From the NCBI GenBank assembly GCA_008632985.1, contig QPGO01000139.1:1-64000 (forward strand): DNA of 64,000 bases. Reading direction: 5' to 3'. Under the pieces are notes generated by a model, which had not been told where the DNA came from, made no database searches, and saw only the letters and a program-made list of their open reading frames with translations. The position numbers were made by a program, and so were the translations under genes. This DNA comes from Psammoneis japonica. Taxonomy: Eukaryota. Numbering within the stretch: the stretch's first letter is position 1; each line of letters begins with the position of its first letter. Positions 7,149-56,745 of the stretch are shown here, in pieces.

Positions 7149-8921
7149 TGTCAATGAGGAATGTATCAAGGATTTATAGAATGTATGGTGTGATACGTGA
7201 TACAGTGCAGGAGTTTGCGATGTAGCCGCGAACACCGCGTCGCGTCTTCTGTGAATTGAATGTCGGAGGGAGTTTTTTGGAATTTCGGTGTTCTCACACA
7301 TGATATAATAAAATAGTATTTATGGATAATAAATAAAAACTCTCGCCGATGATGATGATTCTTCCAAGCAAACCCGAGCTGAAACTCTAAACAACAAACC
7401 AACGATGACAATGCACGATGATACAGGAAAGAAATCCACTTTCACAACATGTTACAAGGTAATGGCATGCCCTCGTGCTCGAATATCATTTTTAACCAAC
7501 GTCTACTAAAACTTCTAAGCTACTTCACAACTCGACAACTTCCCACGGAGGACGCTCAGACTCCATGGACTGGCTTTCCAACCTCGTGGACTTCCAAGGC
7601 ACCGTCACCAAGGTTGTACTTGTAACACTGTCCATCCTTAACGACGACCTTGATATTGTCGCGTTTCAGCATGGTAATATCTTCAAGAGGGTTCCCGTCA
7701 ATAACAATAACGTCCGCGTAGGCGCCCTCCTCGATAATACCAATAGGACCATCAGGGTAGGGGTTCATACCACCGGACCAGCCGAGAACGGTTCCAGCAT
7801 TTCCAGTGGCAGTCTTGAGAGCCGCCACGGTATCAAATCCGCCCATGGTAACCAAGGCGATAATATTATCGGCCTGGCGGGGCTGATAGGCAGAACCAAA
7901 CATGTCTGCAATAATTTCAACGTGAAAAAGGAGAACGTGTGAGGCATTACATATGCTTTCTACTTGTGCTTTGCACTGTATGTACCTACCACCGCCTGAA
8001 ATCAAAATGGGTTTGTACTTTCGCGCGAGAGCCATCATTTTGGCCGCTCCAGAATTGACCATTGCTCCTTTTTGTTGCTGTTGCTTGGTGAAAAACGTAA
8101 TGGCCTCCGGATGAGCAAAGGCTTCCAGGCTCATGACTGCCTGCAACGACAAGGCAACTCCTTCGTCCGAAATGCGTTTCATGGTGTCCTCCGTCATTAG
8201 AAAACCGTGCTCCACGCACTTGACGCCGGCATCGAGAGCACGGTTGATGGAACGGTCGTGGTAGGCATGAATCATAACGTAGCTACCATAGTCGGCGGCG
8301 ACGTCGCAGGCGGCCTTCATCTCGTCAAACGTTCCTTCGGTAATGTGAATGGGATCAAAGGCTGACGCGCATCCACCACCGGCCATGAACTTGATTTGAG
8401 TCGCCCCGTTGCGGAAGTTGTTTCGGACGGCCTTTTTCACTTCAGCAACACTGTCGCCTGGAGCAAAAAGAGGTTGGAGAAACGCAGGTTTAACAGCAGA
8501 AATAACATCATCTGTTTTCCTCTCCGCTTCGAGATGCCGACTTACAGATATGCGAAAATCCATGCTTCATGAGCTCGTCCATGGTACCTGGTTGATCAAA
8601 GCAACAACCGGTGTCGCCATGGCCACCAGTCTGACTGATAAAACCGCCACAGGCGAAGATGCGGGGTCCAGGTATGCGTCCAAGCTTGACCGCCTTGGCC
8701 ATGCCCAAAACATTCCCTCCTGCGTCACGACAAGTCGTAAATCCTTGGTTGAGATAATCTATAAGGTCCTTGGCACACATGGCTCCCATGGCCATTTGAT
8801 CAAAATCGTCCCGTCCTTCGAGCATGCCTTCTTGGATGCTCAAGTGCGAGTGCATATCCACCAAACCGGGCATGAGAGTCTTGCCGGTGCAGTCGACAAT
8901 CGCACATTTTTGATCCGTCGG

Positions 8922-9268
8922 TGTGGGAAAGTAGCCGGAATTCTGGGATTCGTCTGCACTTTCAGTGATTGAAAGCTGCAGTTGCGATGCAACAATCAAT
9001 CAGTAACTTTATTGAACCAAAAGTTGAGAGGTGACAATCAATACGTTAGAAAGATTATGAGCAGTTTTTATGAGCAGATGCAGCTGCCATCTAAAGGAAA
9101 CGCGAAGTTAAACAAGCGCAAAGCTAGGAACAAACATCGCATTCGTGACTCGGCTTCCGCGGGATTCGAGACTGAGCATCGCACACGGGGTTCGAATCTT
9201 GGATCTCTGATTGGAATCGTGGAGGTCCGATGTTGTTGTAAAAACATGCAAATATGAATATTGTCACA
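8922..9268 (-). repeat. 3' LTR (347 bp)
   Basis: Nine substitutions relative to 15131-15477. Preceded on the element strand by the polypurine tract GAAGGGAG (9269-9276). Confidence 0.97.
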
Positions 9269-9311
9269 CTCCCTTCAACAATGTCGGGTGGAATGATGAC
9301 TCGAAAACGTC

Positions 9312-12300
9312 TTACCACTTAAGGAGCGATTTCCTGTGTTTAACGAAGAGATTCTGTGGTAGAGGTTTGGTGAAAATGTCTGCAATCTGATCCGCCGTAT
9401 CAATTGGTAGGATTGATATGAGACCTTTGCGAACATAGTCTTTAAAGTGGTGGAGAGTGAGGTTGAAGTGTTTTGTCCGAGGACGCATCTTAGGCAATCT
9501 CGCGATCTCCAATGCTCCAGAATTGTCTTCAAAAGCCTTACAATGTACGACTGGTGTCTTGGAAGGGACATTATGACCGTGATCCATAAATTCTTGAATG
9601 AGGTTCATAATTGGGATGGCGCTTCGAAGACTTTCCGAAAGAGCGATAAATTCAGCTTCAGTAGTGCTGAGCGCGATCTGAGTCTGTAGCTTGGACGTCC
9701 AGACAATCGGACATCCTGCATAGGTGATGACAAACCCAGTTCGAGATTTGGAAGTGCCGACGTCATTGGGTGCAGTCAGCTTATTCCAATTGCCCACAAA
9801 GTCCGCGTCGGCGTGAACTTCAAGGGACTTGTCCGTTGAGGCTGTAGTATAATACCTTCAGTTCTGGTTGACCTTAGGTACTTACAGAGCCATAGTACGG
9901 CTTCACCGTGAGAAACCTTGGGATCGGAAGAAAAGCGTGCGACTTGGTGCACCGCGTAAGCGATATCCGGTCGAGTGCTCTTCTCCAGAAAATTGAGCTT
10001 GCCGATGATGGATCGGTAATGAAAGCTCCCTTGGAAAGCAGGCTCACTCATATGCCTGTGGAGGATCTTGGAGGAAGGAGCAGGAGTAGACTTATCTGGT
10101 AGTCTCTTTGGAATATTGGCCATCTCCAGCATCTGATTGATAAGGTGAGGTTGGGTAAGTTTCATTCTGCCGTCTGGTAGTGTCTCGACGTTGACACCGA
10201 GATAGTCGTCCAGAGTGCCTTGATCATCAATATCAAAATTCTCATCTCTGATATCCTGTATCGCCTTGTCAATAGCAGACTTGTCAGGGGATGCAAAGAT
10301 GCCGTCATCGACATGATGAATGAAAATGACATTGCCACGAAAATACAGGCACTCATCAACCGCCGATTGTACGAAACCAATCCTTAACAATCCATCACGT
10401 AAGTGTTCTTGCCATACTCTCCCTGCTTGCTTTTGTCCATATAAGTTCTTGAGCAACTTCAGAACATGAGTCTTACCATTGCCACATTTTGTTTCAATTC
10501 CTGCAGGTAACTCCATGTACATATCACACTCGATATCGGCATGCGGGTACGCCAGAACGAAGTCGACTTGGCGTGTATGCCACTTCTTAAGAATGGCAAT
10601 GATCAGTAGGAGCCGGATAGTGAACCAGAAGACCACGGCAGAGTAGGTCTGGAAGTAGTTGACAGCATGCTCTTGCTTTCCGCCGTGCACATTAAGTCGG
10701 GACTTCCATTTGTAGACGGCTTGGGTCTTAATATCTCTTTTGCGCTTCATAGACCATACCGAAGGGAGAACATCAACATCGTCAGGTACGTTCTCTCTTG
10801 GAATGAGTATCCAATGTTTCCTTTCAATATGATCATTGACTTCCTTAACACAGGCCTTGATAAATTCGTCTCTGTCAGGTTCACGCATAGCCTGATCAAA
10901 GTACATGGTGTCGGGGTCCGAGCTCGCCAGAAAAGAGATAGGTGAGTCCATATCGTCCTGCAGTTTGTAATCATCCTCGTGCATCGCATCATAATATGCC
11001 TCTGCCTCTGCATTGTAGGAGACAATGCCTTGAGCCCGTTGTAGTTGGCTCTCGCGCATCCTTTCGGTCGGGCGTCGTTGTCGGCCGGACCTACTGGTAC
11101 TGGGTTGACCCATAGTGCGCTGTGGCTCAGATGGTGCGTCAGAATCATCTGGAGGCGTGTATAGCATTTCGTCATCCGGTTGGGCATTATCAAATGAGTC
11201 ATCAGTGGTAGACGTATCAGTAGGATGCAGCAGCTGAGACGGGACATCCGAATTCGGCTCAGGTGGTTCCGTTGTGGTAGGGACTGATCCCTCAACCGGT
11301 ACGTCACTTGATTTCCCAAAGATGTTAAAAGTACTCCTTGTCTTGAGTTGTCTGAAACCTGCAATGCCTTGCCATTGTGAGAATGTAGGAGGATTCCCAG
11401 CAAAAAGGGCGAACGGTCTCAAAGAAGTCGTCAAATTGTACGTGAAATTGCGGCGATACGAGTCCGGTCTGCAAATTCAAAACCAAGGTAACTGAACCTG
11501 CGTGTCTTGTTGATGGTCCCAAATTGATTCCTAACCTTGCCCTTGGGTCCCACTTAGGCAGCCTACCTCCTCCCTGCAACCGGTTGTGCAAGGCGTAGAC
11601 GGGACAGCCGAAGGTATGGTGTTGTTTGAGATTAGGCTGGACCTTGACGGACGAGAAACGTTCCAGCGGAGAAGAACCGTCCTCGTGATTCGGTAAGTGA
11701 TTCTTGATCTCGTTTGAGTTCCTGAGAGCGCTTGGCCATAAGTTCAACTCAATAGCCGTTGGCCATCTCACTTTTGCATGCAGGAGTTGCTTCCGAGATT
11801 GCTCTTGGAGGTCCCTCATTCTTTTCTCCGCGATGCCGTTTTGGAAGTGGGCGTTGACCCCACAATAGGATATTGTTTGCTGTTGCTTCTTGACGTCTTG
11901 TATGAAAGCATTATCAGCGAATCTTCCATTGTCGGCGTGGTAGTGTTGAATACGGACGTGCATCCGGCGTGCGAATGCCTCGAAAGCGTGCTTGGCTTCG
12001 AGCGTCTCGGCTGAGGTAAGTCCTTTCTGCAAATATGTGTATCCCAATCCGCTGAAATGATCAACAAAAATTGTCGCTGCTCGATACCTTTGTTTCATAG
12101 GTCTCCCTTTGAGCTGTGGGATCAGTCCAGGAGTAGGACTTTCGAGCTGGTCGACAGATACGGCTTCTCCAGGCGAAGTTGCCAAGTGGATTCGTCGGTT
12201 CCGCTTGGACTTGGAGCGCCATGGTCGTTTCGTCATGGCACCGTATAGGCAGCCGGCACATTTTGGGTTGTGTACCTTTGTAAGGCGTTTCGGTAGAATG

Positions 12301-13571
12301 CCTAGGGCGGCCAATAGCTTTATCATTTTGAATGACATGTGGCCCAGGCGGTAATGCCAACGCAATAGTTCACCCTGGTCATCTGTGGCAGCAAGGGCGT
12401 CATCATTTGGTATGATGTTGATGGGTTCCGGTAAGTCCTGCTGTACCTCCGGTGTCGTGAAATCCCTTAGGTTTTCCTCGTCTGAGTCTGAACGACTTGC
12501 TCCGTCTGTTGGCTCAAATAAGACAGGAGCATCCTCATCAGTAGTGTTGCGTGCGTCTTGCGTCTCGGAAGGACGTGTCTCGGATGGACTTCTGAAGACG
12601 TCTGTATCAATTGCAGCCTCGTCATCATTCGCAATACTCTCGTCGTCTGGTGGTATGATGTGAGCTTGATAGGCCACGTGCTCGATAGTTTCGATATCGG
12701 TTTGTTCTTCGACAGCGGCTGCAAAGGTCCGGTATTTGTTGGAACCGGGTGCGGAGCGCATCTTGGCGACGTTAGAGTTGGCGGACCATGGAATCAGGCG
12801 ATGACACTTGCGTTGATCCCACATGAGTAATAGTCCGTCGTCCCTAGTCCAAGATACGGTTCCGTGAGACTCTGGCGTGTGGTCATTAGCTTGCTGGCTC
12901 CATTGCTGTGGGCAGAGAAGACAATGAGGTAAGTCGGGTACATAGAGTGCGTCTCGAATTTTAATGCTGTGCACTTGTCCCATGTCGTCCTCAATTGCCC
13001 ACTGCACTGTTCCTTCTCCCTTAGCACGTAAGTAGTCCTTGACACCGAGTACCACTTTGTTGGATTTGCGAAGAGGACCAATGAAGTGTGCCTCGTCGTT
13101 GGACATGGTGCAGGAAGAATGCGAGTCGACGCCGATTACGAATGAGTCCGAATCGTAAGTGGGCTCCGTTCGCTCGGGACGGTATGGTGTGGTTGAGTTG
13201 TACGCTCTAACCGTCTTGTATCGTGTAATGACATAGTGAGCCTTCTTGGTGGCCACTCTGGAGCGGTGACCTGGCCTCGTCGACGTATGATACCGTGCGC
13301 AGTACCTCGTCGTTGGCCGTCGCTGGTAAGTCTTAACTCGTCTTGTGCCCAGTTCAGCCAGGATATGTGAGATGACCCACTCACCCAGCGTCATTACGGC
13401 ATGTGACAGGCGCTTACACTTTTCTGAAGGAAGGGATAGCATCATGAATAGTAGTATGATCCAGATCGGTGCTGCACATTTCATGACGCCAGCGACCGCT
13501 ATCAGGAGCACTGACACAGTGACGGCTATCTGCAAGGACAGCAGCAGTGTCAGAGTGAACCTGCAGAGCAG
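9312..13571 (-). CDS. pol: Copia Pol (protease, integrase, RT, RNase H) with apparent 1-nt frameshifts at about 11402 and 9840
   Basis: PR: IGVDSHSSCTMS. IN: WHYRLGH..CAGC, SVDQL, HADNG, QNGIAEK. RT: QVDFVLAY, KNLYGQKQAGR, HVDD. RH: ADADF, ALSTTEAEF, FEDNSGAL, ADIFTKPL. Confidence 0.93.
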
Positions 13572-15056
13572 TCACTCTTGATCCACTTCATTTAGGATGG
13601 TAGAGACAGCACTTGCGAAGGAGACTTTCTTGTCCGACGTGTCTGTGGATGGAGCAGACTGTTGCTTGCGGAGTCTACAGCCTTGGTTGCCCGGATCATC
13701 AGGTGAGTGTATGACCCAAGCAGTGTGATATGGGCACCAGTGATAGTCGCGATAGTTGACGCGCTTGTGATAGTACTGATGACCGTTCACTGTCTTCTTA
13801 GGAGCGTCCTCCTTAGGCGGGACTTTCTTCCAGGCTTCGTCCGCTTTCTGTCTCTGACGTGGAGTGGTCTTGGTCTTCCTTGACCGTGTGCTTCTTTCCT
13901 TGGTTGAACCAGCCTTGGCCTTCAAAGCTTTAGACAGCTGAAGGTTCTGATCCTTGATGGAGTCTACCTTGGCTGCAAGCGCGACGATTTGCTCTTCAGC
14001 CGGTGATAGTGCTCCCCACTTCTTCTCGCGCTTGAGGTTAGTATGTTTGTTCAGTGCCAACGTCATGATTTGCGTCGGCGTGAATTCCTCACCGTCGTCG
14101 TACCTGTCCTTGTATAACATGATGTACTTGACGAATACTTCGTCAGCAGCTGCGGCGTATCCTTTGAATAGGTTCATGATAAGGTCGTCGCACTGCTCTC
14201 CTCTAGCTTGGAGTCCATCAACGTTGAGCTTGGCGTACTTGTTGAACTCTTCGATGTCCGAGTTAACAGCCGCCATGTACGTATCCAGGCTTGACAAGTT
14301 CTCGCGGAAGTAGTTGGTGGTAGAGCGTGTGTCAACGATGGCCTTTTGCGTAAGTAGCTTGAAGAATAGTGTGCCGATTTGATTTCCATTGATCGTATGG
14401 GAATCTATCTCAGCCAATGTCTTGTCTCTTGCTTCCTCCGTAAGGGATTGAGAGATCGCCTCGGCCATCTGCACATTGTTCTGTGCTTGTCGCGTAGGCA
14501 GATTCGCGAAGGTGTTCGCATGGGTTCTTACATCCTGTAGAGTGAGTAGTCCGTACTCGGAGATGAGATCTCGTGGAGTTCCATTCACGTCGGGAATGGT
14601 AAGTATGTCTCCTGCCCCTGTTTTCCATCCTGCCTCGGCAGCTCGTTGACTGAGTGTCTCACAAAACCGTTTGAGACCTTCTGAATCGCCGTTGAACTCG
14701 TGCGGCAGCGGTGCAGTAGCGGCGTTCCAAAGCTTGAGGCCTTGCGATGTGCCGTAGTCGATGAAGTTGTTGGGACGGTGTTGACCTGGAGTCAACGTGA
14801 AGATCGGCAGTGGTGGCACAGGTGCCAATGGTGGTCCACCTGGTGGGACTCCGCCTCCTCCTCCACCTCCTCCGCCACCTCCTCCTGGAGGTACACCGGG
14901 AGGAACGACTGGGGGAGGTACAGGAGCAACTGGAGCGGCTGCAGGAGCAGGTGCTGTTGCCGGAGCAGCAGCAGCGGTAGGAGCTGCAGCGGGTGCAGCA
15001 GCGGGAGCTGCAACAGAGGCAGCTAGAGCAGCCGCGGTTCGTGTCTGCGTGACCAC
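13572..15056 (-). CDS. gag: Copia Gag with Ala/Pro/Gly-rich N-terminus
   Basis: 494-codon ORF directly after the 5' LTR, with the CoDi-like knuckle HWCPYHTAWVIH...C. Ends in TGA in frame with pol. Confidence 0.88.
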   Translation of the reverse strand: MVTQTRTAAALAASVAAPAAAPAAAPTAAAAPATAPAPAAAPVAPVPPPVVPPGVPPGGGGGGGGGGGGVPPGGPPLAPVPPLPIFTLTPGQHRPNNFIDYGTSQGLKLWNAATAPLPHEFNGDSEGLKRFCETLSQRAAEAGWKTGAGDILTIPDVNGTPRDLISEYGLLTLQDVRTHANTFANLPTRQAQNNVQMAEAISQSLTEEARDKTLAEIDSHTINGNQIGTLFFKLLTQKAIVDTRSTTNYFRENLSSLDTYMAAVNSDIEEFNKYAKLNVDGLQARGEQCDDLIMNLFKGYAAAADEVFVKYIMLYKDRYDDGEEFTPTQIMTLALNKHTNLKREKKWGALSPAEEQIVALAAKVDSIKDQNLQLSKALKAKAGSTKERSTRSRKTKTTPRQRQKADEAWKKVPPKEDAPKKTVNGHQYYHKRVNYRDYHWCPYHTAWVIHSPDDPGNQGCRLRKQQSAPSTDTSDKKVSFASAVSTILNEVDQE

Positions 15057-15116
15057 AGTGACAGCAGAGTAAAGTAGAATCGAGAGCTTAAGATCGATTG
15101 ACTTAACTTGTAGATT

Positions 15117-15130
15117 GCGCAGAGGAAGCG
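15117..15130 (-). promoter_or_regulatory. Putative primer-binding site complementary to the D-arm of initiator tRNA-Met
   Basis: Element strand reads CGCTTCCTCTGCGC immediately after the 5' LTR. The complement GCGCAGAGGAAGCG(TG) resembles the eukaryotic tRNAiMet D-arm GCGCAGCGGAAGCGTG. Confidence 0.5.
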
Positions 15131-15477
15131 TGTGGGAAAGTAGCCGGAATTCTGGGATTCGTCTGCACTTTCAGTGATTAAAAGCTGCAATTGCGATGCA
15201 ACAATCAATCAGCAACTTTGTTGAACCAAAAGTTGAGAGGTGACAATCAATGCGTTAGAAAGATTGTGAGCAGTTTTTATGAGCAGATGCAGCTGCCATC
15301 TAAAGGAAACGCGAAGTTAAACAAGCGCGAAGCTAGGAACAAACATCGCATTCGTGACTCGGCTTCCGCGGGATTCGAGACTGAGCATCGCACACGGGGT
15401 TCGAATCTTGGATCTCTGATTGGAATCGTGGAGGTCCGATGTTGTTGTAAAAACATGCAAACATGAATGTTGTCACA
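15131..15477 (-). repeat. 5' LTR (347 bp)
   Basis: Direct repeat of 8922-9268. Confidence 0.97.
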
Positions 15478-16853
15478 GTCGGTGGCTCCAACCCCTTTCC
15501 AATCTTCTGGATGATGTTTCCAACGGTGAGGACATCGGCTCCTTCACTGTCACACAATGGCACAACAAAACAACAGAATAAAATTAACCTTCACATTCGC
15601 CGCAGTGCCCACCCGTAACATAGACGCACCTCAACTCGTCTGACTTTCCATCAAAGACATTTGCATTCTTAAAAAGGATGGCCTTGGCCGGAGGTGGTGC
15701 ATCGGGAGCACGGCAGTTCAACGGAAAGCACTCGGGCATGGTCTTTTGCTTTTTCAGTTTTGCCTGTCTTGAAGTTGGAGTTAGGAGTTGTGGTACCCGG
15801 TGCAGCGATTGGAAGAAGTTCTGAATGAAGTTGGAAGATGAACGCGGTGCTCAGAAGATGAAATCATCGTCTTGCGGAAAAGATGCCGAAGATTGCACTC
15901 TACATCGCTGAACGTTTGATTGCGAATGCGCGACGTCACAGCACATACGGTACGGCACTACTCAATACTTTCATACCGTACTCAATACGACTTCGACCAA
16001 ACTGCCGCCTTCCATCTTCCATCTTCATTCCATCACTTCTCACTTCTCTAGTATGAGGCTACGACTAGCACAATGTGCAAAATAGACTATTACAAACTGA
16101 ATACTTTGTATTTAAATATATAGTAAATGTCTGAATGATTGGTATGTAAAATGACTGCACATGACTCCTGCTGTAGAATTTGTACCAGTCTACGTATTTA
16201 TTGCTCTACGAACTGAAGCCCTATAGAAATGTCTGGTGTTAAGTAAATTCAAATGTCGGAGCCGCCAAAATGGACCGAAACGCCGGCCACGTCTTTTAAT
16301 AAAACATCCGAACTTGTTTATTGATTATGAAGCAGTCGGAGTTGAAAAAGTAATATCAAAATTTGAGTCATAATTTGAATAGGAAACATTTAAAAAATCT
16401 TCTAATTGTGTTACAAGTATCGATTTTTGACTACAAATTGTATGGGTTACATCTGTAAAAATGCCATAATTATTTGCTAAAAGCCGTTATCATTAAACAT
16501 CGATGTACAAAAAATGCGATACGGGTGTTCGGGACGTTTTTTACAGTTCACATTGTGCTAGTCGTAACTCCATAGAGAGGGCCTAACGCGCACGTAGAGG
16601 TCGCTTCCCTAACTAATAAACAATCGACAATGGCAGTAGTTAGTTGTCGGTAGTAGTCGTAGGTGGCACACCGCCAGCAAACATCATCTTCTCCCTCAAC
16701 CTTGAATATTTTTCCAATCTTCGAACCCAGAAACCCTGAACCTCCTGATCAACGTGGCAACGCAAAAGTTCAACGACGTTTCAACGAGGAAGAAGATAGG
16801 AGTCTAGTGTTCAGTTTGATCAGCGCAGTGGAGTCTTAAAAGTATTTCAAGCC

Positions 16854-31326: not shown

Positions 31327-32089
31327 CATTCTCTAGCTAGAGCTAGAGAGAAGCGTGCACAGGGCTATAGTAGCTAGAAATCTATTAACTAAGCAAGTGG
31401 CATTTGCCTGTATTAAATAGAAACCTCTCAATCTCAGTACTGTAAGCATCACCAGCAGTTTCAGTTCGACTGGTCGAGTAAGGAATCAAGTTGACGTACG
31501 GACTAAAATGATCTCATCAGTCTGCACATGCAAAGAAACAGGCAAAGCAAAATGTGTGTCAAGTGATTGTGTGTTAGAGTGCTTGCAGAAGCTCACAGAA
31601 CTGTTCATTTCAAATCTTGCTCCATGCAACCACCATGCATCTGGCAGACTTGGAGAAAGCAAGAGAGCTTTTCTCTGTGCTAACGACCCTCTCCCCACAA
31701 CTCTTGTCAATCACGGCAACACAAGTGGGCCAGAAGTTTGGTTTCCAACAAAAGAACTTTGCCTGCAAATTCTTGTCTGTCAAGAAACAAGTGGATGATG
31801 GGTCATTTTGCCTTTTGGCACATGCAGTGATGAGTTGATTTGTGCCAAGTGACTGGCACAAAAAAATTCATCAACTTTGGCATGGTTCCTGTGCCTTTCC
31901 AGAGGTTTGCTTTGGTCAAAGAAATGGTGGTTGCAATCACAGACCATTGCTCATGGGAAAAGGCTCAAGTGTGTTTTGTTGGTTGTGACTCTTGCACATG
32001 ACTGTTGTCGATCATTTGGTGTTGTGGTGTCAGTCATTTTGGCTGGTGAGGGTTCCAATGACATCACTCCTGTTGGTTGTCTGTCACTG

Positions 32090-32540
32090 CCCACCATCCA
32101 AATCTGCCAATTGAGGAAAAGCTTGAAGTTGGAGGTTGTTTGTGGTTCTTTCTTTTTACCTGCTTTGTCCCCTGCATTGTTGTTGGGTGACATGCAAGTG
32201 CCACACAAGTTTCTCATTGAAATGAAAAAAGCAACACAAAGACAAATGGGCAGCCAATTTAGAGCCGCGCCAGTTGTCTGCCACTGTGCTGCCCAAATCT
32301 GCCAACTGAGGAAAAGCCCAAAGTCTGAGGTCACATTCATTGCTCTTTCTCATTGCTTGCTTTCTTGTTGTTGCACTTTGCCATTGTTGGACAAAATGCC
32401 AACATTGTGTGAGCATGTGCTGAAGCAGAAAAGTCAAACAAAGACAAATTGGCCAATTTGAAGCCACACCAGCTGTCTGTCATTTCACCATCCAAATCCA
32501 CCAATTGAGAAAAAGCTTGAAGTTGGATGTTGTTTGCAAT
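32090..32540 (+). repeat. Degenerate direct repeat, period about 196 bp
   Basis: ccaaatc(tg/ca)ccaa(t/c)tgag(g/a)aaaagc recurs at about 32098, 32294 and 32492. Confidence 0.65.
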
Positions 32541-32975
32541 TCCCAGCCATCTTGAAGTGCAAGCCATTGCAAAGCTTTTTAACTTGCTCGAGCTGATGAC
32601 CAAACTCCTCACAAGAAAAGATGAGATGTTGTGCAGCCAAGTCACAAGATTTGGAGCTGTTTTCTTTTGTCTTGTCCACTTTATGCTGCACATCATGCAC
32701 CTCCTGTTTTTGCAAATGATGACTTTCCAACTCATCAAAGCACTTGTCAATGGTTGGACATGGGCACAACTTGAGACTTGTTCCCTCATTTGACATGTTG
32801 CCATGGTGCAGCTCCCCAGCTTGATGGAGAGTCATCACATTGTGAGACCAGAAGAGGCACAAACAGAACACAACTGTCTTCTCAGCATTGGAGCATCTGG
32901 ACCACAGGATGAAAAACCCAAGTCCATTGAAAAAAAAATGCTTTGGCTCCTGACATGGTGATGCAAGCAACTGTT

Positions 32976-33984
32976 TGTCAAGGAATTTTCATGGCCACTG
33001 AACCCTCACCTCTGCTTTCATCTTGCTGTTTGGAGTGAGTTGTTTGGTGCATCATCCATTTGCCTTTCAGCACCACTGGGCACCTGTTGTTGCACAAATT
33101 TGAAGTTTGCACTGACAACTTCTGGGCAACCCAAGGCCAAGCAACAAAGACTGCCAAGTTCTTGAATGCAGTGGGCATCACAGGAAGCCTTGCAGGACTC
33201 CTTTTTGGGGATGTTGACTTGCTGGTTCAACACTCACTCCAAAGAGGCCCTGATGCTGCTTCAAGTGCTTGTGCCTGCCAACCCACAGTTGACAGAACAC
33301 TGCACACCTGCAAAATGAGTGACAGAGGAAGAGGCAGCACAAGCGGAAGGACCAAGGCCAAAGCATGGCCAAGGCAGAGGTGACAACAGTTGCAGGTCCT
33401 CTGGCCAGAAGAAGAAGACCAACAAAAAAGCTTTCAGCCTGACACAAAGTTCCACCCTTGCTTGCTTCATCACTGAGTGGCAATTTTTGCAGCAGTGCAT
33501 GTGAAGACATCAAAGAGAAAGCCTTCTTTTGCTTGCAAAAAGAGTGTGAGCAAGGTGCGAGCATCTGATGATGTCTTTGGAAGACATGAAGTGCAAGGGG
33601 TGTGGTTCTGAGAAGCTCACCTCGAAGGTGTCACCAGCGAAAATGCCCAAGGCAAGCATTGCAGAGTGCCACAAGGCACCAAAGGAAGGAACAGCATGAA
33701 GACAAAGAACTCAAGTGCAAAGCGGAGCTGAGCAACTACCACAGCAAAGTGGCGCAGTTTGAAGAATGAGACAACTGCACCTGTCAAGATCCTGGAAGAT
33801 TGCTGCACCAAGCTGATGAAGCAAAAGTGCAGGGCAATCCCAGATGCTCCAGCACTGGGGATGATCCAATCAAGCTGAGGAAGAAGCTGATCCAACCCCT
33901 TGCACTTGACTCAATGAGATGTGGGCACCCATTGCAACAACAAAACAACAAAACAACAAAACAACAAAACAACAAAAAAACAAA

Positions 33985-34015
<31 letters not shown>

Positions 34016-35954
34016 CACAACAACAACGACAACAATGACAACAACGACAACAATGACAACAACGACAACAACGACAACAACAATGACAACAAGCAACAAC
34101 AACAGCAGTTGGCCCAACAATGCAAAGGACCTGAGCCTTGCCCAGAAGAGCAGCTCCAGCAATGCTGTGGCATGCCACTGCTGGGGTGCACCAGGGCACA
34201 AGTCCCCAGGCTGCAAACATCTGAGCAACATTGCACACAACAGCTGCTGGTTCAAAAGCACCTGAACAAAACTGGATGTTGGGGGGCAGAGGCACACACA
34301 AACTTCAGCAGCAGGCAATGATGACCACCTGTTGGTGGATGGCAACAACGTGAGTGTCAACACCACCAGATCTAGCCAGCTGACCCACTCCAGCTGGAGC
34401 AGGAGCACGGCATGGCATGATGGGTTGCAACTGACAAACAAAAGGTCAGAAACAAGAAGTGTGAGCCAAGCCAATGCAGGCATCAAGAGCAACAAAATTG
34501 TCCTTGACAATGGCTTCACCCTCAGCATGCTGGACAAGAAGACTGGTGAGCAAGTCACAGTGTTTGGAGTTGACAATGTTGGACCATGTGCAATCACACC
34601 AAGCCAGCAATTCTTTGACCATGCAAAACATCTCCAAGAAGGTGAGTTGCATGTGAGAGCACTGAACTGTGGGTCTGATGGGGGGACATGCAAGCACTCA
34701 GACTATCTTGCAAGGCTGGAACACCCAGTGTGAGGGATTTTCAAGTGATTTTTGCATTCAAACCAGGTGAAGATCTTGTCCATCACACCTGAAGACATTG
34801 ACAGAATGGCAGCTGTTTGGGGTCCACCAATGGATGCACTGAAAGGCAAGACCAAACACATGCATTTTTTTCATGAGAGGAACAATGCCACAACAGCCAG
34901 CACACCTCAGCCATGCCAGAAGCAGAGAGAAGCAAGGTGTGATCCTCTGCATCAATGCTTTAGAAGCATGCTGAGTCAAGATGCTGCACGTGACAGACAA
35001 GACAATCAAGTGCCAATCAAGTGTGAGGCTAAAGTCAAAAGCACACTGATGTGTGGTGCAACACACTGGGACATGATTCTCCAACAGCACAACATGGTGC
35101 CACTCAAGTTTGGCTTCATTGCATGTGATCCCAAGTTGATGCAAAAGACAAGAGAGAGGGTCACACATTTGGGTGTGGTGAGAACACATCTTCTCTGCCA
35201 AAGTGGCATGACCCATCATTGAGAAGGCTCAGGTGCTGATGGAAGACATGAACAAACACATCAAACAGCATGCTCCAGAAGTTTGTGAACACATGTCTGC
35301 CACTGTTCCAACATTCTCCATGCACAAGGACAATGATGTGAGTGCACACCATGTGAGATTGGAGTGCATGACAGCAAGCACATTTGACCAAGGAACATTG
35401 GTGTGTCATTGGAGGCTGAGCCTCAAGGCAGGGCAAGGCATGTTGTTGCAAATGGAGGCAACGCACAGACAGTGTCATCAAACAGATGAGTTACAGCAAG
35501 TTTGTTGCTGGATCAAGAGGCAGGGATTTGAAGTTGGCCAAGACAGAAGTGATCCTCAATGCTCTTGGCCCAAAATTTAAATCATCAGCACAAACAACAG
35601 GAGTGTTTTGGAACATCCAGATCATCGGTGTTGTGAGGAATGCAGTGGCCCATTGAGAAAAAATGCTTTGACTCCTGATGTGGCATTGTGAGCAACCATT
35701 GGTGAAGGAATTTGAAGCTGCTGATCTCTCACCTCTGCTTTGGGCCTTCATCTCACCAGTTGTTTGGAGCAAATCATTTGGTGTGTCATCTGCTTGCCAT
35801 TTGGCATCACTGAGCACTGGTTGTTGCACAAGTTTCAAGTTTGCATTGACAACTTCTGGGCAACCAATCTGCTGTCAAGGTGAATGCAGCAAGCATCACA
35901 GGAAGCCCTGTGGGGCTCCCTTTTGGCAACATTGACTTGCCAGTTCAGCACTCA
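32976..35954 (+). mobile_element. Ancient, internally deleted Ty1/copia (CoDi-type) element with diverged LTRs (about 32976-33236 and 35700-35954)
   Basis: Flanking direct repeats share ctcacctctgcttt, ttgttgcacaa, gacaacttctgggcaacc and gcatcacaggaagcc. Internal relics: IVLDNGFTLS (protease-like), ITPEDIDRMAAVWGPPMDALKGKT (CoDi pre-integrase-like), KFGFIACDPKL (RT-like). Confidence 0.6.
33934..34107 (+). repeat. (CAA)n / (AAC)n imperfect microsatellite
   Basis: About 170 bp of caa/caaaa/gacaa units inside the relic gag region. Confidence 0.9.
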
Positions 35955-37199
35955 GGGCCCAAACAAACAAACTTGGAAGAGAAAGAAAATCCTTGCTTGT
36001 GAGGACCAGCAAAGCCAGACAACACCAGGTGCTCCTCTTTGTTCTTCAAATCTTGCACAGGCTGAAGCATTGCCATTGCAAACTCCTCATCCAACCCAAA
36101 GCATTTGAGTGCCTTGCCACAAAAAAAGACTGGGCACACTTGCAAGTTCTTTGTTGACAATGCCAAGAACTTGTTCAAAACATTGCTTGCTGTGCCATTT
36201 TTTCAACTGCAGCACAAACAACAAAGCATCAAAGTTGAGCATGTTGCTGCCCTGCTGAAGTCAACCTGCACTGGTGCATTGTGCTCAAAGAGCAAGTGCA
36301 AACAAGAGCAGAACAAATCACAAAAAGTGGAAAATTGTGAGATTGGATTTTGCTCTGCCAGTCTGGGTTTTTCCATGTGGGCTCTCAATGGCCCAAAGCA
36401 TTTGCACTGTGGTTGTTGCATGTCACAGTGCTCACAGAAGCTTGCAGAACAATCAATTTCAAATTTGGCTCAGCTGTGAAATGACCACATGTCCAGTCAA
36501 CTTCTTGGACAAAGCAAGCAGTTTCTCACTGACAACACTGCATTTGCCAGTCATCATCATGATGCAATGCTGCTGTGCTCAAACTGTCTGGACACACTTG
36601 CAATGATTGTCAATGTGTCTTCTGCATCCTTGAGACTCTTTCCAGGAAAAGCAAATTCAAGCTGAGCTGCAAAAAACTTTGGTTCTGAGTCTCAAGTCTG
36701 GGAGTCAGCAGAAATCTGAAACTGCACTTGCAAACTTCTTTCACATTAGCTTGGTTTGGACTGCATGCACTCCAACACTGCCCATGCATTGGTTTTGACT
36801 TCAGCACTGGCTTTCTGAGGACAATGACAAGCTCAATTAAAAATCCAGTGCACACACAAAATGAGGGCACATCTGACAACAAGAGTTTGGGTGACTGCAG
36901 GTCTTTTGAGGACAGTGCCCATGCTTGTGTCTGTTTGTTGATGGCATGCCATTTGCAAAATGGTTTGGTGTCAATGGTCCTGGCACATTTGTCACACCAC
37001 AATTTGCACTTGGCATGCCACAAAGAGGTCCTTGTCTCTTTCTCATCTCCTGCGGGGGCTGCTCCTGCTGCAGTTTTCATGATTTTTACACTCGCAACAC
37101 ACCTCTTCACATCTTTTGTTTTGGCCCCATGTGGGTGCATGTTGATGATGTGACGTGGCCATTGCTTTGATGCTTCTTGTGACTGTGTGCAGTCTCATT

Positions 37200-39400
37200 T
37201 TGATTGCTCATGTGCATGAGAGGGTTTTCCTTGTTTTTCATGTTCTTGGCAGCAGTGGCTGCCTTGAATCAATGCATGACTCATGCTTGCCAAGATTCAC
37301 ACATCCAGGACACTCAATTGGCATGCTTTTTTCTGGCTTGCACCCCCTCCAGCACATGCTTGTGGGCTCCATGCTGCCACACCTCAGCTCTGCCTGGAAC
37401 AAACCACTCTCTCCCACAAAGTGGCACAGTGAAGGCAAGTCAAGTCAATGATCAATGCAACAAGTTGAGATGGTTGGGCATGTGTGCAATGTTTGCAACT
37501 GCACATGACTCGTGAGCATTGCTTGTGTTCACAATGAAAGTTGGCCACCAGCAAGCAAGAAGGCAGCCAGGGTGTGGGGTCAGCAGCCACAGGCTTGGAG
37601 TTGCCAGCAGCAGGCTGAGCAACTGGCTCCCTTTGACTGGGTGCAGATGGGTTGGGAGTCAAGAGATTTCTTTTTTCAGCATTGGCGCATCTTCTTGGAG
37701 ATGCCTTGACTGTTCCACAGGAGGGTGTCTTCCAACTTGCCAGAACAACAAGGGGGACCCCTTTGGCTGGCCTGGCTTTTTTGCTCCCTTCACCTGTTGT
37801 TGTCCATCCTTCAACCTGGACACTCCTCCACCAGACGGCATTCATGTGGAAGTGGAGCTCATCACATGGCCATCAACTTGAAACAAGCTGGCATTTTTTG
37901 TTGAAGGATCATTCCTGTTTTGAGTTGGAGACACCCTGTCACAGCCTTGGCTCAGCTGCACCTCTTGGCAAGAACACATGTGAATGTTGTCACAGCATCT
38001 TGACACAGCTGCAAGTCTGTGGACACATTCACATGGCTTTTGCACAAGTGATGGGCATGAACGGATGTAAGAAGTCACATCTTGTGTGCTGCTGCTGAGA
38101 TGGCAGCAGCTGGCAAGGTGAACAAACACTGATCTTGTCTTGTGGCTCCAGAGTCCAGAGTGCCATGCATCCCAAGAAGCAGAAGTTGTTCCCTGTCACT
38201 GTGTGAACAGAAGGCTGGGATGGGAGGAGGGAAATTTTCAGTGTGGGGCACCATTTTTGGTTGGCAAACAGATCTCATGTCACACCAATGGCTCGCCAAG
38301 AACAACAAGGGATGTGCTTGGGCAGGCCTTGTCTTGCCATCGGCCATCTGTCCATCTCACTTCCACATCTGCACTGCTGTTGCTTGGTGTGCAAGGTGGG
38401 TGATGACAACTCCAAGAGCCCAACTGCCAACAAGAGATTCCACTCTGTCTTTGTCTTCTTGCAAGCTCAGCTCTCATGTGCTTTTGGCTCAGTGTGGACC
38501 TGAGCAGGATTGCTGCTGTGGCCAATTGGAGCTTTGATGTCTGACATTGAAATGCAAGCCAAAAGCATGACAAAACAATGTGTGAGTCCATGAACATCAC
38601 TCATTTGTCAGCCAACACAAACAACTGTCAAGTGATTGAGAAGCGGTGCACATGGTCTGCAAGTGCCTTGTTGACATGACTGCACCTGAGTGGCTTAAAA
38701 ATTCTTCCCATGTGGACCCCAAGTGTTTGACACAGCATCATCATGATGTTGTTGGTGCAAACAAAGGTGATTGGTGGTGGCAGTCCAGCCAATCATTTGC
38801 ACACATTGATGATCAGATGTAAAAATTGCAAGATTCTGGTGTTTGACACAGAAGCATGAAATTGACGTGGTCTTGATGATGGCAGAAAACAGCCCAGTTG
38901 GGTCAGAACTGCCAAGGAGGTCAACATCACTGTGCACAATCTTGCCTGGTTTGTCTGCAGCAGCCCTGGATGCCTTGGGCACCTGTGGGGGGTCTGGCCA
39001 GCATTGGTGGGCCCAGAGCACAGAGCACACATGTGGGGCGGGGGGCAGCAGGGATGTTGGCAATGTTGGTGTCAGGATGGTGTGTGCACAAGGCAGCTGC
39101 CCCACTGACCCCGCTCCAGTCATTTTGTAATTTGTTTCACACCTGGCACACACTGTTCTTCTGTGTGTGGCATGTGCATGGTCTGCTCCTGCTCAGCAGC
39201 TCTCATTGCAGCGCGTGCCTTTGAAGTGCTGGTGCCCCAAACACATGGGCATGTTGTGGTGGGGACTCAGGGGCAGCGCAGCATCATTGTGTTGGCAACA
39301 AGCCTTGGCTGACTTCACACTGCAGTTCAGTGTGCTGGTGCTTTTTCAAGGGTGGCAACACCCTGTTCCCAACCAACTTGCAAACCCTGCTGCTGGGGGG
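37200..39400 (+). mobile_element. Possible relic of a tyrosine-recombinase (DIRS/Ngaro-like) retrotransposon
   Basis: Weak motif resemblances in the expected order: TIFGWQ (RT), CTAVAWCARWVMTT (RNase H-like), GLRGSAASL (SLR.GGA-like box of YR). Heavily mutated. Confidence 0.2.
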
Positions 39401-39559
39401 TGCCCATGGTGTGGCAGGTGGTCCCATGCTGGCCAACTGGGCATTGACTTCTGAGCACATTTCCATGGATGGTGGCTCACAGTGAGGCCAGAGACATGTG
39501 AGTGGGCATCCATCTGCACAGCAACCAAGGACAATTCAAAGCAGCACACAGGAAAGCCT

Positions 39560-42300
39560 GTGGTGGCCAATCATCTGTCCCCTCAAAGATGGGGCAGCAA
39601 GGTCTGGCGCTGGGGCTGGGAGGTCTGTTCACTCTTGCCAGGAGCAGAGCCAATTGTTTGCAGCCAACTGGGTGTTGTGGACAAGAAGGGCTGGTGCAAG
39701 GTGTTGCATGGTGGGGTTGTGAGGTCACACTCAACACTCCAGCTCAGCTGGCGGCATTGGCAACCATGGTGGAGAGGGGGGGGGGGGGGGAGGTGCACTG
39801 GTGCACAACTTCTTTCTGATTGGTGGAGAGCGGTGCTGTCACATTGCACCTGCAGGCCACTTGGCAGCAGTGCATCTGCAGACTTGTGCAAAAGCAGCTG
39901 CTGGGGGGAGCTGCAGGTCCAGCCAAGGGGGGGGGGGCTTCTTGATCCACCATGAAAGACAAGGATGAATGGAGAGGGGTGTGCCACATGCACACCAGAG
40001 GGCACCTGTGGTGTGTGAGCAGTTGGGGGACACCCACACTTTGCCGAGATGATGTCATCAGCACTGTCCAAGAAGATTGTGGAAGTGCACTTCATTTCAC
40101 CCCTTCTTGACAATGAGTTGGAAGGTGTCAACCTGCACATTGTCAGGTGCAGCATGATGGAGGAGGCAGCCCCACCACCCAACGAGCCTTGAGCACCCAG
40201 TCAGACATGGCTGGTCAGAGCTCAGTGGTGCCAAGCATCTTGCCGTCATCAACGAAAGACCTGCCACTGTTTGCACGGCAATTGCATGGGCCAAGATGGT
40301 GGGCACATTCTTCATCCTTGTGACTGTCTGCTGGTTGCTTGATGTTGCAACAATCAACAACAACAAAGAATGACCTCCTTGGAAGATGCAGCAGTGTCTT
40401 GCCAAAGGTGTGCAAATCTTGGGTTCACTGTTCAATTGGTTTTTTGCAGAAAGCTCACAATTGACAGCACCTGTGGCTGCATTTCCAGGTTTAACAACAG
40501 CCTGCATTTCCATCCAGGAAGGCAGGGGGGCAATTGCAGCCTTCTGGCCAATGTCATGAGCTCCAGTCAAACATCTGCATTGTTTGACATTGTCATTCAA
40601 AAGGGAAAGGAAAGACTTGCAAGCCTTGATTTGGTTGAGCTGAGGAGGAACCACTCCAACAAATCTCTTCCTGAGGCAAAGGCATGCCACAGCCTGAGTG
40701 CAAACCTCCAGTTTCCAATCGTCTTGGGCTTGGGTGCATTGCCAAAATGATGGAAGTCCTCTCATCCACACCATGCTCCTCCTTGTGCAAGTGGAACAAA
40801 AGTGGATGAACAACTTGGACAAGTGGAAGCCAAAGAATTCATCTGCCATGTCAGCCAGGTTGCAGCCCATCCCAAGTGCCAACCAAAAGGAGCATCTGGG
40901 CTGTTGCACTCAAAAAGCACAGACCTGGAGTGCAGGCATGTGTTGCACATTGGACAGAAATCAACTCAAGGCAGTTAAGCTGGAACACCAAACACAAACA
41001 ATGGCACACCTCACAGACAAGTTGGGAGCATCCATTGGGGTCTAGGTTGCACTTGTTTTTGATGGTGAAAAACCCAGGCAACCAGCTGGTGTGCTCACCA
41101 TCATGCAATCCATTGCTGACACTGTGCCAAGACAATCAAATCATTGGAAGTTCCTGACATGCTGGGCCAGAATGGGATCACAGGCATCTTGATTTTTGCC
41201 ACATCATTGCACCCCTTGTGCATCTGCAAGTTGATTGCACAACATTTCAATTCGCTGGTTGCTGGGTCTGGTTGCATGCTCGACAGACCAATGACTTTGC
41301 TGCTGTCACCATTCTTGGTGTCATCTTGACACTCACAATCAAAGCCAGGTGCTTGCCATGTGGTGATGATTCTTGAACAGTCCATCATTGCCTTGGGGGG
41401 TCCATTGTGCTGCCAAACATTGTGCTGTGCTGTGGATGATTGGGGTTGGCAAAAGGGTGCTGACCCTTTGGGATGAAGGGTGCCATCTCACCTGACAATC
41501 CAGCAGCAATGGAAGATTTGATCATGGCATTGACAAAGGCAGGATTGGGCTCACGCTCGCTGGATTTTGACTGCAACTTGGGTGGCACATGTGTGGCTTG
41601 AAGCATGCTGGGACAGCTGTGTCCATCCGTGCTGGCAGTGTGTCCATTGGATTGGCCACCGGCGGCAAAGCCAACATCACAGAAGTCACTGGGTTTCTGC
41701 CATTTCATGGAGTTTTTCTTTGGAATGGCATTGAATTTACATCCAAATTCAATGCCCTCATGGACTCCACGCCAGTCAACCTCCTTCACCAAAAAGCACC
41801 AGCACCTTGGTCTCCTTTGTGGATGATTGTTGTGTTGTGTCATTGGTGTGGACAAACATTTTGGGATTGCACAAACACACAGCTGGAGACACACCCAGAG
41901 CTTCAAAAATCTGCTTCAGCTGCCTCATCAAAAAACCAATCTGGCGCTGGGCATGACCATGCTTGCCTTTGTGCAACAAATGTCCTTGGCACTTTGCCTG
42001 GGGCCAACAGCGAATCTCGGACACACACTCAAGGATGCGGTCAATGTCCAGTTTGCCTCTGTCAATGAAAGTGGATTTTTCTTCTCTGGAAAGATCAAAC
42101 CACTTGTCATTGAACTTCTTGATGAAAAAGCCATGGTTGAAAATAGAGTTCTTGTAGAGAGAAGCTGGCAAGGAGCGGCACAGATGCTGGAAATCTTGTG
42201 CAGTTTGGATGGGAGACATGGGTGGGCAGAAGCATTTGTTTGATGGATTGGCAGAAGCACACCATCAGTGTTTGCACCATGGGAAGTGGCAACATCAGCA
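39560..42300 (-). pseudogene. Decayed long coding relic, possibly an endogenised negative-strand RNA virus L (RdRp) gene
   Basis: Ordered motif resemblances: NQIK...(F), GAQGSLGGGAASSIMLH (B), LDSADDII (C), HKS...VQCDS (D/E). No clear motif A. Confidence 0.25.
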
Positions 42301-43249
42301 AGAACACTGCTCTCATCAAAACTGGCAGGGTCACCATCAGAGAGCAGGTGCAAAGCAGGGGAACTGCTGCCATTCTCATCAACATCATTGGTGTCACAAT
42401 CAAGGAAGAGGTGGCAAGGATCCAAGGCAGCAGTGTCAACAGTGGAAACCACTGAGGGGGGGAATCAGGGGAGACAAGCAGCCTGCCAACCCTGTCCATG
42501 CTTGGCTGACATTGAAAACTCAGTGCTGAGGGTGGAGCTTCAATGGCCAAAGCGGCTGTGCAAGTGAGGAAATGCCACCCTGTCTTCATCTTGTCAAGCC
42601 ATGCAGACAGGGAGAAGAGGCACCCAGAGGGCAAAGTCACAGCATTTGACTTGGCACTCCCCTTGCAATGATGTTTGTGCTTCCTGCCATGATTGCCAGA
42701 GTGACGGCACTTGTTGTCAGTGTGACGTTGCGAATGATGCCTGGCCCCCATTTCACCTGGAGGAGGCTGCAAAAGAGTGGTGGCTGAGGGACCATGATGC
42801 AACACATGTCACAATGCACACAAGGCAGCATCATTGGGGCATTGGTGTGGATGCTTGCCATGTGGCAGTCTTTTGCCATGGTGGCTGCTGAATTTCTTTT
42901 TGGCATGCTGTTTCATGTCGTGCGTGGGAGGAAATCCAACCGTTGAGAGTTCAAACTGAGCATTGAGTTCAAATTCTCATCAAATGTCTGTCTTTAATTG
43001 ACACAACATAAAGTTGCATGCTCTTGGAAATGTCACATGTGTGTGAAGCCAATGGATGGTCAGTCAACCACTTGGCGCACATGACGCAGGCATGACGTGA
43101 GATTGTTGCCCACTTTCCGGGAGGGCCATCTCCTCCTTGATGCCAATGCATCAGATGCCCATTTGCGGCCCACACATGAGCCGCAATTTTTTTCAAATCT
43201 TCAATGACAGAGACAATTGATGAACAGACCCCACAGTTGAATTCTCCAC

Positions 43250-44450
43250 ACCCAAAAACATGGGAATCTACACTTCAACTGTTGAAAAGGACCCACACTG
43301 GTTGTTGTTGTGGCCTCGTTTTTGAGCAATTTTTTGCCAGTTTCTCCCTCCACCATGGCAGACCCTGTGGCTGCTCCCACCAGCAAAAGATGTTCACTCC
43401 AGAAACCTCAGACGCCTGACAACATCATTGGGGAAATGCTGGGGTGGACATGTCAGAATTGCTTGCAGCAGGAACAGACACGTCTTTTTCACCTGTCAAA
43501 GACATGCCACAAAACCCAGCATCACAGTCTGCAGCAGAAGCACCAACTGTTCCCCCCCATGCATGCTCCCCCTCCAAGTCTTCCTGCGAGCCACCAGTGG
43601 CCAAGAGAGCTCAACTTTGACTCAGCTTTGCAAAGCAACAAAGGCAAGACAATGTGGGAAAAGAAGAAACGTGAGTTTGCATTGTTGCTGCAATGGTTGC
43701 TCACTGTCACTGTTCCATTGCTGTTCCAGCATGCTGCCATTGCTTGTCAGTGTCACTTGGAGCCAGTTTGGGTTGAGGCAACCGAGCCAGAAGATGAGGT
43801 GGAAGTGGAGTGTGAGGAGGCGTGGAGGAAGAAGAAGGTCAAGAGTGCCGGCGGCATCATTTGTCTTTGCACCGCTGCATCTTTGCTCTTGCGGGTTTTG
43901 AAAAACAACAACACTCACATGTCTGTTTTCACTCATTCACTGCCACATGTTGTTCCAGTGGCTTCTTGGGAAAAGTCTTGGCACCGCTGCCCGTCATTGT
44001 CATTTGAACGCCAAACCATCCCCACCATGTCAGAGTGCAGCACCACCCCCCTGAGTTTTCAGTCATGACACCTCTTTTGCCCAGTCTGCCCTTTGAAGGT
44101 CTGGTTCAAGTGCCGCTCTTGGAAAGTGACAAGAGTGATTGACTGTGTGTTGGTCTTTTGGGAAAAATGACAGAGTGCACCATTGATGTCCAGCAGCAAA
44201 ATTGGGTTTGGCAGCAACATTGGGTTTGTTGTTGTTTGGATTGTGTCACATCGCTCTTCCAACATTGATCTTTCCCGCAAAAATGACAACGAGACAAGCT
44301 TTGTTTTAAGAATTGTGGCCAATTTGCGGCCCACGTGTGGGTCGCAAAAACATGCGATAAGAATTTTTTGCCATTGTCGTCGGTCTCTCATGCACTCAAG
44401 CATGACAGGCCTGTCACACTTCCAGTGCGTGGACAGACGAAGTTTCAACG
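43250..44450 (-). mobile_element. piggyBac-like transposase relic
   Basis: MRDRRQWQKILIACFCD, ITLVTFQERHLNQTFKG, AACWNSNGTVTVSN and CMGG occur in the order of PGBD motifs MSRNRF..LHF.D, ESMVPF.GRH..KQ..GK, W.DN..VT..SN, YN..MGGVD. Confidence 0.4.
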
Positions 44451-44519
44451 TCCAACAACAGACAGTTGCAAGCAGATGGCATCACCATTTTTAGCTCTGT
44501 GTCACATGTGCACAAAAGG

Positions 44520-56649: not shown

Positions 56650-56745
56650 GAGGGCTGGGAAGTCAAGAGGAATCTGCACAGTGAGGGCTGGGAAGTTGAG
56701 AGGAATCTGCAGATGAGGGCTGGAAAGTTCACAGGAATCCAAAAG
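56650..56745 (+). repeat. About 33-bp tandem repeat, three copies
   Basis: gagggctgg(g/a)aagt...aggaatc repeated three times. Confidence 0.75.

Follow-up and report, generated by a model that had tools for sequence, protein, structure and literature searches.

The window analysed here, the whole stretch of positions 1–64,000 on the forward strand of contig QPGO01000139.1 (Psammoneis japonica, assembly GCA_008632985.1), holds a Ty1/copia long terminal repeat (LTR) retrotransposon on the minus strand at 8922–15477, and the Pol of this element reads histidine at three positions where tyrosine would be usual. Are these codons unrelated substitutions, or do they record a mutational process with a preferred context and a direction? 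A pattern of TA against CA or TG gives no direction by itself, as a C>T process like the repeat-induced point mutation (RIP) of fungi and an adenine-directed A>G process predict the same differences; conserved residues do. Judged against distant relatives, sister copies and the remainder of the window, the three histidines are probably TpA>CpA scars, the light-dose footprint of a TpA-specific hypermutation of DNA in a degenerate and polymorphic Ty1/copia insertion. The element resembles the diatom lineage named CoDi, which we take to be its likely kin.

Conserved tyrosines and the direction of change

On the minus strand, 10315–10313 is CAT within FIHHVDD, at the tyrosine of the YVDD motif of the reverse transcriptase (RT), 9815–9813 is CAC within EVHADADF of RNase H, and 10669–10667 is CAT within GGKQEH. 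Each codon lies one T>C step from TAT or TAC, with A as the next base; the codons and coordinates (10313–10315, 9813–9815 and 10667–10669) given by the sequence-only reading are correct. That reading also took tyrosine to be conserved at all three sites, which the alignments support at two. Among 120 long relatives (identity at most 62%), the YVDD column has Y in 110, F in 8, C in 2 and H in none, and in a wider set of 240 relatives Y accounts for 94% with one H. The RNase H column has Y in 65, W in 34, F in 12 and H in 4 of 115 relatives. The GGKQE column is mixed (Y 47, H 30, F 19, K 14, L 7, R 2 and Q 1 of 120), such that tyrosine appears to be a mere plurality and histidine a natural state. 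As polarity evidence, the YVDD site would therefore rank as excellent, the RNase H site as good and the GGKQE site as weak. The absence of H from the YVDD column in all 120 relatives also suggests that HVDD entails a loss of RT activity. The residue preceding HVDD is likewise histidine (CAT), but with V in 21, F in 12 and other residues in 7 of the nearest relatives it gives no polarity.

In the 31 Pol columns that are at least 60% tyrosine among the 40 nearest relatives, the window has Y in 22, H in 3 (exactly the three above), F in 4, S in 1, L in 1 and C in none. Across gag and Pol together, 5 of 42 conserved tyrosines (about 12%) have changed to histidine. The proposal that such a process can disable the RT within a few hits was arithmetic and not evidence, with the YVDD change being one draw in about eight at this rate and the copy being frameshifted as well.

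Direction was tested more widely on 895 columns in which at least 60% of the nearest relatives agree (40 relatives for Pol and 37 for gag). The window departs from the conserved residue at 106 of these columns, in 48 cases by a transversion, in 27 by two or more changes and in 31 by one transition. The single transitions are made up of 11 TA>CA/TG, 1 CA/TG>TA, 3 CG>TG/CA, 3 TG/CA>CG, 6 other T>C/A>G and 7 other C>T/G>A. Per non-synonymous opportunity, TA>CA/TG (11/155) is 15 times as frequent as its reverse (1/212; Fisher P 4.7e-4) and five times as frequent as the other A/T transitions (9/683; P 2.3e-4). The 11 changes consist of Tyr>His at 10315, 9815, 10669, 14399 and 14045, Ile>Met at 11817, 10130 and 10163 (for which a route by transversion is also possible), Ile>Thr at 14419, and Ile>Val at 10771 and 14531. 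Read on the sense strand, 6 are T>C and 5 are A>G, and thus both strands are affected. A Fisher test restricted to the Tyr/Ile versus His/Cys/Met columns was not significant (6/74 vs 1/45, P 0.25) and is superseded by the test based on opportunities.

Three sequencing runs matching this DNA were listed, all from one sample and study, with no RNA run among them. Sister copies are represented by contigs from two runs of that sample, X1 and X2, with alleles weighted by contig depth; variant-level results here and below come from 40 of the 894 variants, all reaching 100% in at least one run. In X1, 1211 contigs fall on the element (270 at ≥99% identity, 400 at 95–99%, 364 at 90–95% and 177 at <90%), and the depth of about 1000–2900 over most of its length, against about 45 in the flanks, indicates an abundant family. 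Transitions account for 753 of 891 variable places and for 34 of the 40 variants, 23 of which set TA against CA/TG (22% expected, P 2.5e-8). The cleanest copy-specific change is the ATG methionine at 11817–11819 (minus strand), where ATA is found in 720.7 of 750.7 sister depth and isoleucine in 142 of 142 relatives. Nine of the variants lie in gag, and at five of them the window has TA and the sister contigs CA/TG. One of these (14043) is synonymous and cannot be polarised, while at all four non-synonymous sites the gag relatives back the TA allele (14101, Y 29/37; 14755, Y 28/32; 14604, I 28/35; 14600, T 15 and A 0). At 14755 the TA allele is found in X2 and not in X1, so the X1 contigs do not stand for the whole family.

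The sequence-only reading allowed that histidine in every family member would speak against it. At 10669, where the site is polymorphic in the family, the TAT tyrosine allele is present in 463.2 of 2623.9 X1 depth and in the sole X2 contig, with histidine as the major allele (2160.7 of 2623.9). At 10315 and 9815 the sister contigs appear not to be unanimously different from the window. Some changes are therefore specific to this copy (11817) and others shared with sister copies (10669 and 14045), the latter either inherited from an already altered source or recurrent. The orientation TA>CA proposed from three codons is borne out on a wider base, namely the 11 replacements against one, the four gag sites, the two purged blocks described below and an experimental precedent; the changes of this kind extend beyond the three codons to two further Tyr>His in gag and the six at isoleucine. 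The direction of the TA-specific process in this genome, from TA to CA/TG and opposite to fungal RIP, holds well.

Changes in integrated DNA and the setting of the element

The two LTRs, each 347 bp and with TG..CA ends (TGTG...CACA), lie on the minus strand at 15131–15477 (5' LTR) and 8922–9268 (3' LTR) and differ at nine positions, all by transitions. Seven of the differences are TA-type (23% expected, P 7.7e-4); of the other two, the first is CpG-type and the second of another kind. The 3' LTR carries TA at six of the seven and the 5' LTR carries CA/TG at six; if TA is the older state, TA was lost at 6 of 14 sites in the 5' LTR and at 1 of 14 in the 3' LTR. One template serves for both LTRs of a new copy, and the two are identical at integration. 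These changes therefore took place after integration and on DNA.

The same window contains two blocks purged of TpA and CpG, at 31700–44900 and 50900–61400. The first has 30 TA, 111 CG and 3088 CA+TG within 31800–44900 (13.1 kb), and the second has 19 TA within 51000–61300 (10.3 kb). The blocks retain about 2 TA per kb, with a CpG rho of 0.0–0.3 and CA+TG roughly doubled (rho 1.7–2.0), a composition that can arise only by the loss of TA. Host genes lying between them at 45–51 kb, encoding a fatty-acid hydroxylase and an RRM protein, have a normal 253 TA in 6 kb. The long frames within the blocks matched no Pfam family above the cut-off and hold no recognisable retroelement domains. Within the window, the loss is local to these blocks, presumably repeated or foreign DNA, and the neighbouring genes are spared; the element itself, with its small dose, cannot be told apart from its flanks in this respect.

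The element measures 6556 bp and is flanked by a perfect 5-bp target-site duplication, GTCGG, at 8917–8921 and 15478–15482. On the minus strand the order is gag, a stop, protease/integrase, RT and RNase H, and the copia-type RT (RVT_2) downstream of the integrase, together with the direct LTRs, identifies the element as Ty1/copia. The gag frame (13575–15170) contains the Tyr>His codons 14397–14399 and 14043–14045 and the Ile>Thr codon 14418–14420. Pol is spread over three frames: the protease/integrase part at 11404–13571 (Pol_BBD, gag_pre-integrs and SH3_retrovirus in the frame 11325–13571), the RT at 9840–11403 (PF07727, E 3.9e-35, in the frame 9776–11476) and the RNase H part at 9315–9839, which aligns with 221 relatives in a frame of its own. 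The description of Pol as otherwise intact is thus not borne out. The break between integrase and RT falls at a run of five T (11402–11406), one T longer in the window than in contigs making up 728.6 of 760.8 depth. That between RT and RNase H falls at the CC of 9840–9841, where contigs with 605.5 of 2375.6 depth carry an extra base that would keep the two in frame. The missing base is common to the window and about three quarters of the sister-contig depth, which may mean that a defective source, copied in trans, gave rise to the greater part of this abundant family. With two frameshifts and HVDD, the copy has neither the one open Pol frame nor the catalytic YXDD of an autonomous element. No internal stop codon occurs within about 1500 Pol codons across the three frames.

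The insertion interrupts the coding sequence for the N-terminal part of a host amidohydrolase (Amidohydro_1 gene, 7556–8921, minus strand), on the same strand as the gene. In both X1 and X2, contigs span the empty site precisely (8916>15478, a skip of 6561 comprising 6556 + 5 bases), which makes the insertion polymorphic, being in one haplotype and missing from another. Although the insertion is polymorphic, its LTR pair is already 2.6% diverged. In the flanks (8530–8763 and 15680–15843), the window differs from the empty-site contigs at 11 positions, all transitions and 7 of them TA-type. On the left, within the host gene, four positions carry TA in the window against CA/TG in the X1 contig (Tyr>Cys, Ile>Thr, Ile>Val and one silent change). 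On the right, beside the more heavily affected 5' LTR, the window has CA/TG at three sites. If TA is ancestral, then the element-free haplotype was altered inside a host gene, for which the hypermutation reading offers no explanation; the solved amidohydrolases were too distant for polarising these differences.

Protein searches returned no sister copy, with a best identity of 69% among 1253 near-length matches and 62% among 775 longer matches. A search of 1.84 billion representatives added only distant relatives, a sequence-index search found no look-alike of the element, and tblastn with the element proteins and 40 relatives found no second copia of the same clade in the window. With the best relative 69% identical, the family itself appears to be absent from the collections searched. 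The named relatives are diatom proteins at 45–52% identity, from Chaetoceros tenuissimus, Fragilaria crotonensis, Epithemia and Attheya.

A further feature of the family lies on the opposite strand. Between 10155 and 14708, in the antisense (+) orientation, X2 contigs skip at least 13 stretches of 70–113 bases with GT..AG bounds, 8 of the 13 starting with GTAAGT, and there are twelve more joints in addition to these. The GTAAGT hexamer occurs 11 times in antisense and once in sense within the element (500 shuffles: mean 1.9, maximum 7), and the skips have the look of antisense transcripts of the family that are heavily spliced. No long antisense frame opened when the 13 stretches were removed, the eight metagenome relatives showed no antisense excess of GTAAGT, and a literature search for spliced antisense transcripts of LTR elements in diatoms found nothing fitting. 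At 14599–14604 the window keeps a GTAAGT that X2 uses as an antisense donor; C at 14600, present in 95% of X1 depth, would destroy its GT, and TA changes may erase antisense splice sites.

Alternative explanations

Several observations weigh against hypermutation as the source of the three histidines. The TpA content of the element is at background (rho 0.63, 258 TA in 6556 bp), as in the neighbouring host DNA and the eight metagenome relatives (0.37–0.73). The dose is small and the copy only lightly affected, such that any single site could be an ordinary transition. Nine of the 20 polarised A:T>G:C changes lie outside TA and may be ordinary divergence, and at the conserved Pol tyrosines a change to phenylalanine by transversion (4/31) is about as common as one to histidine (3/31). 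At 10669 histidine is both natural in the relatives (30/120) and the major allele of the sister copies. There is one reverse change (His>Tyr at 12035), and three changes private to the window are plain G:C>A:T (12097, at CpG, 10792 and 13036). At 9437 the picture is ambiguous, with the nearest relatives leaning towards histidine (H 18, Y 9 and F 9 of 40). Finally, nine internal sites carry TA in the window and CA/TG in all or most of the X1 depth, and were the majority allele taken as ancestral these sites would point in the opposite direction.

Much of this is consistent with ordinary neutral decay and family divergence, under which the three histidines would be unrelated point substitutions in an old, dead copy. 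The frameshifts and the plain G:C>A:T changes fit such a history, as do the background TpA density, the low share of histidine among the conserved tyrosines, the histidine-rich GGKQE column and the 75 of 106 departures that need a transversion or two changes. Decay nevertheless gives no reason for the fivefold and fifteenfold excess of TA changes over other A/T transitions and over the reverse, for the TA-type majority among the LTR differences or for the purged blocks in the same window, and it is an unlikely explanation of the whole.

The context alone would also suit A-to-I editing of RNA before reverse transcription by an ADAR-like enzyme, the internal histidines then being inherited at integration. 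Several changes are common to sister copies (10669 and the histidine at 14045), the family is apparently transcribed in antisense, so that duplex RNA could form, and a U before the edited A matches the neighbour preference of ADAR as summarised in the available passages of Mettrop et al. (10.64898/2026.01.13.699255). Editing of RNA does not, however, produce two LTRs of one element that differ at seven TA-type sites, TA-type differences at 7 of 11 positions in single-copy flanks or purged blocks devoid of recognisable retroelement domains. In Bigelowiella natans, moreover, the changes described in the same passages (10.64898/2026.01.13.699255) arose in integrated DNA during cell divisions. Editing is accordingly improbable, and rather more so than decay.

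HVDD and the other histidines could instead be fixed and tolerated features of a family that is active or copied in trans. No unanimous sister-contig difference is seen at 10315 or 9815 among the 40 variants, at an X1 depth of about 1600–1700, although alleles truly private to the window (12097 and 11817) did appear there at about 100%; the shared frameshift between RT and RNase H further implies that defective copies have multiplied. Conversely, the lack of a variant among 40 of 894 is weak evidence and no proof of sameness, histidine is found in the YVDD column in 0 of 120 and 1 of 240 relatives, and shared ancestry of a change leaves its direction unaltered. This explanation is very improbable.

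The least credible alternative is the opposite polarity, a RIP-like C>T at CpA that would make histidine the older or an unrelated state, which draws on the nine sites where the window has TA and X1 mostly CA/TG (against two with the opposite arrangement, CA/TG in the window and TA in at least half of the X1 depth), on the three informative G:C>A:T changes private to the window outside TA and on 9437, and which is contradicted by the YVDD column without histidine in 120 relatives, by the TA allele of the gag relatives at all four informative sites, by the TA that X2 keeps at 14755 where X1 has none, so that an X1 allele at 100% is not that of the whole family, by blocks that retain 2 TA per kb, with CA+TG doubled, which CA>TA cannot make, and by some 1500 Pol codons free of the stops expected from CAA, CAG and TGG. 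It should be noted that TA alleles private to the window had at first been read as CA>TA polarity or as a two-way process, a reading that was dropped in light of the gag outgroup, the X2 allele at 14755 and the purged blocks.

Hypermutation directed at TpA in DNA remains the preferred reading. Under it, at least 11 replacements in the lineage of this copy (five Tyr>His, three Ile>Met, one Ile>Thr and two Ile>Val) would each have arisen by one A:T>G:C transition at TpA. The likely chemistry would be deamination, on one DNA strand or the other, of the adenine in 5'-TA-3', which the next replication would read as G, and the presumed targets are stretches that are repeated or silenced. In the two purged blocks, this process would have converted almost all of the TA, and most of the CG, to CA/TG. 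The dose in the element is about one TA in ten.

A process of known kind in a new host

The process is of a kind already known, the host is new, and the finding lends it one line of support. Its direction implies that integrated DNA is subject to A:T>G:C chemistry, a type of genome defence shown experimentally so far in one unrelated alga only, and what is added here is a test of polarity that draws on outgroups, corrects for opportunity and concerns a lightly affected, polymorphic copy. More broadly, and tentatively, since the evidence falls somewhat short of making it likely, diatoms may possess a DNA mutator directed at adenine, specific to TpA and targeted to repeats, in other words a 'reverse RIP' that works by dose, in which young polymorphic insertions are first nicked and TpA is finally erased altogether. 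Scars such as Tyr>His/Cys and Ile>Met would then be inherited, because lightly affected copies keep multiplying, and the family consensus would be rewritten. Should this be the case, element families could be dated and ordered by their TA loss. Should the same process operate in diatoms, it would be widespread among marine algae, and it would need to be allowed for in LTR insertion dating (the LTR divergence here is mostly TA changes and not clock-like), in transposon annotation and in the search for the deaminase. A literature search at the level of titles for retrotransposon hypermutation or TpA-directed A-to-G change found no report of such a process in diatoms.

The element itself agrees with the diatom Ty1/copia elements in its LTRs, 5-bp target duplication, gag followed by protease-integrase-RT-RNase H, and RVT_2 domain. 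It differs in that its best relative is just 69% identical.

Among known mutators of retroelements, fungal RIP of ascomycetes changes C to T mainly at CpA, which gives TpA and makes stop codons. The process seen here is alike in that dinucleotide-specific transitions riddle repeats, may spill into the flanks and make LTR pairs and copies differ. Its direction is the opposite (11 to 1), in that TA is destroyed, stops are removed and tyrosine goes to histidine or cysteine; the single CA>TA against 11 of the reverse, the lack of internal Pol stops and the loss of TA in the blocks are all unlike a fungal-type RIP. The G>A changes of APOBEC3 and A>G changes of ADAR in animals act on a replication intermediate or on RNA, and both LTRs of a new copy bear the same scar. 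They share with the present case a deaminase-type, context-specific scar in retroelements, and ADAR prefers U before the edited A. Here, in contrast, the two LTRs are not alike and changes reach into single-copy flanks, which argues for action on integrated DNA.

The closest counterpart is B. natans, in whose mutation-accumulation lines 231 mutations were recorded in two integrated-virus regions, 230 of them A>G/T>C and all 230 on TpA, with an ADAT2-like deaminase proposed for the process, according to the passages available from the 2026 bioRxiv preprint (Mettrop et al., 10.64898/2026.01.13.699255). The differences, as far as those passages go, concern the host, here a diatom-like stramenopile; the targets, here retrotransposons and unnamed repeats and there integrated viruses; the loss of CpG from the purged blocks, which is not among the features given for B. 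natans in those passages; and the evidence for direction, which comes here from outgroups, for a copy only lightly affected, and there from changes watched in mutation-accumulation lines. In both systems, on the same passages, A:T goes to G:C at TpA and not the reverse (here 11 to 1, and at 4 of 4 gag sites), so that, depending on the strand, TpG or CpA results. Both are local to foreign or repeated DNA (in B. natans, integrated giant-virus and virophage DNA) with the adjoining host DNA normal, and both leave a lasting footprint in which TpA is low while CpA+TpG is high.

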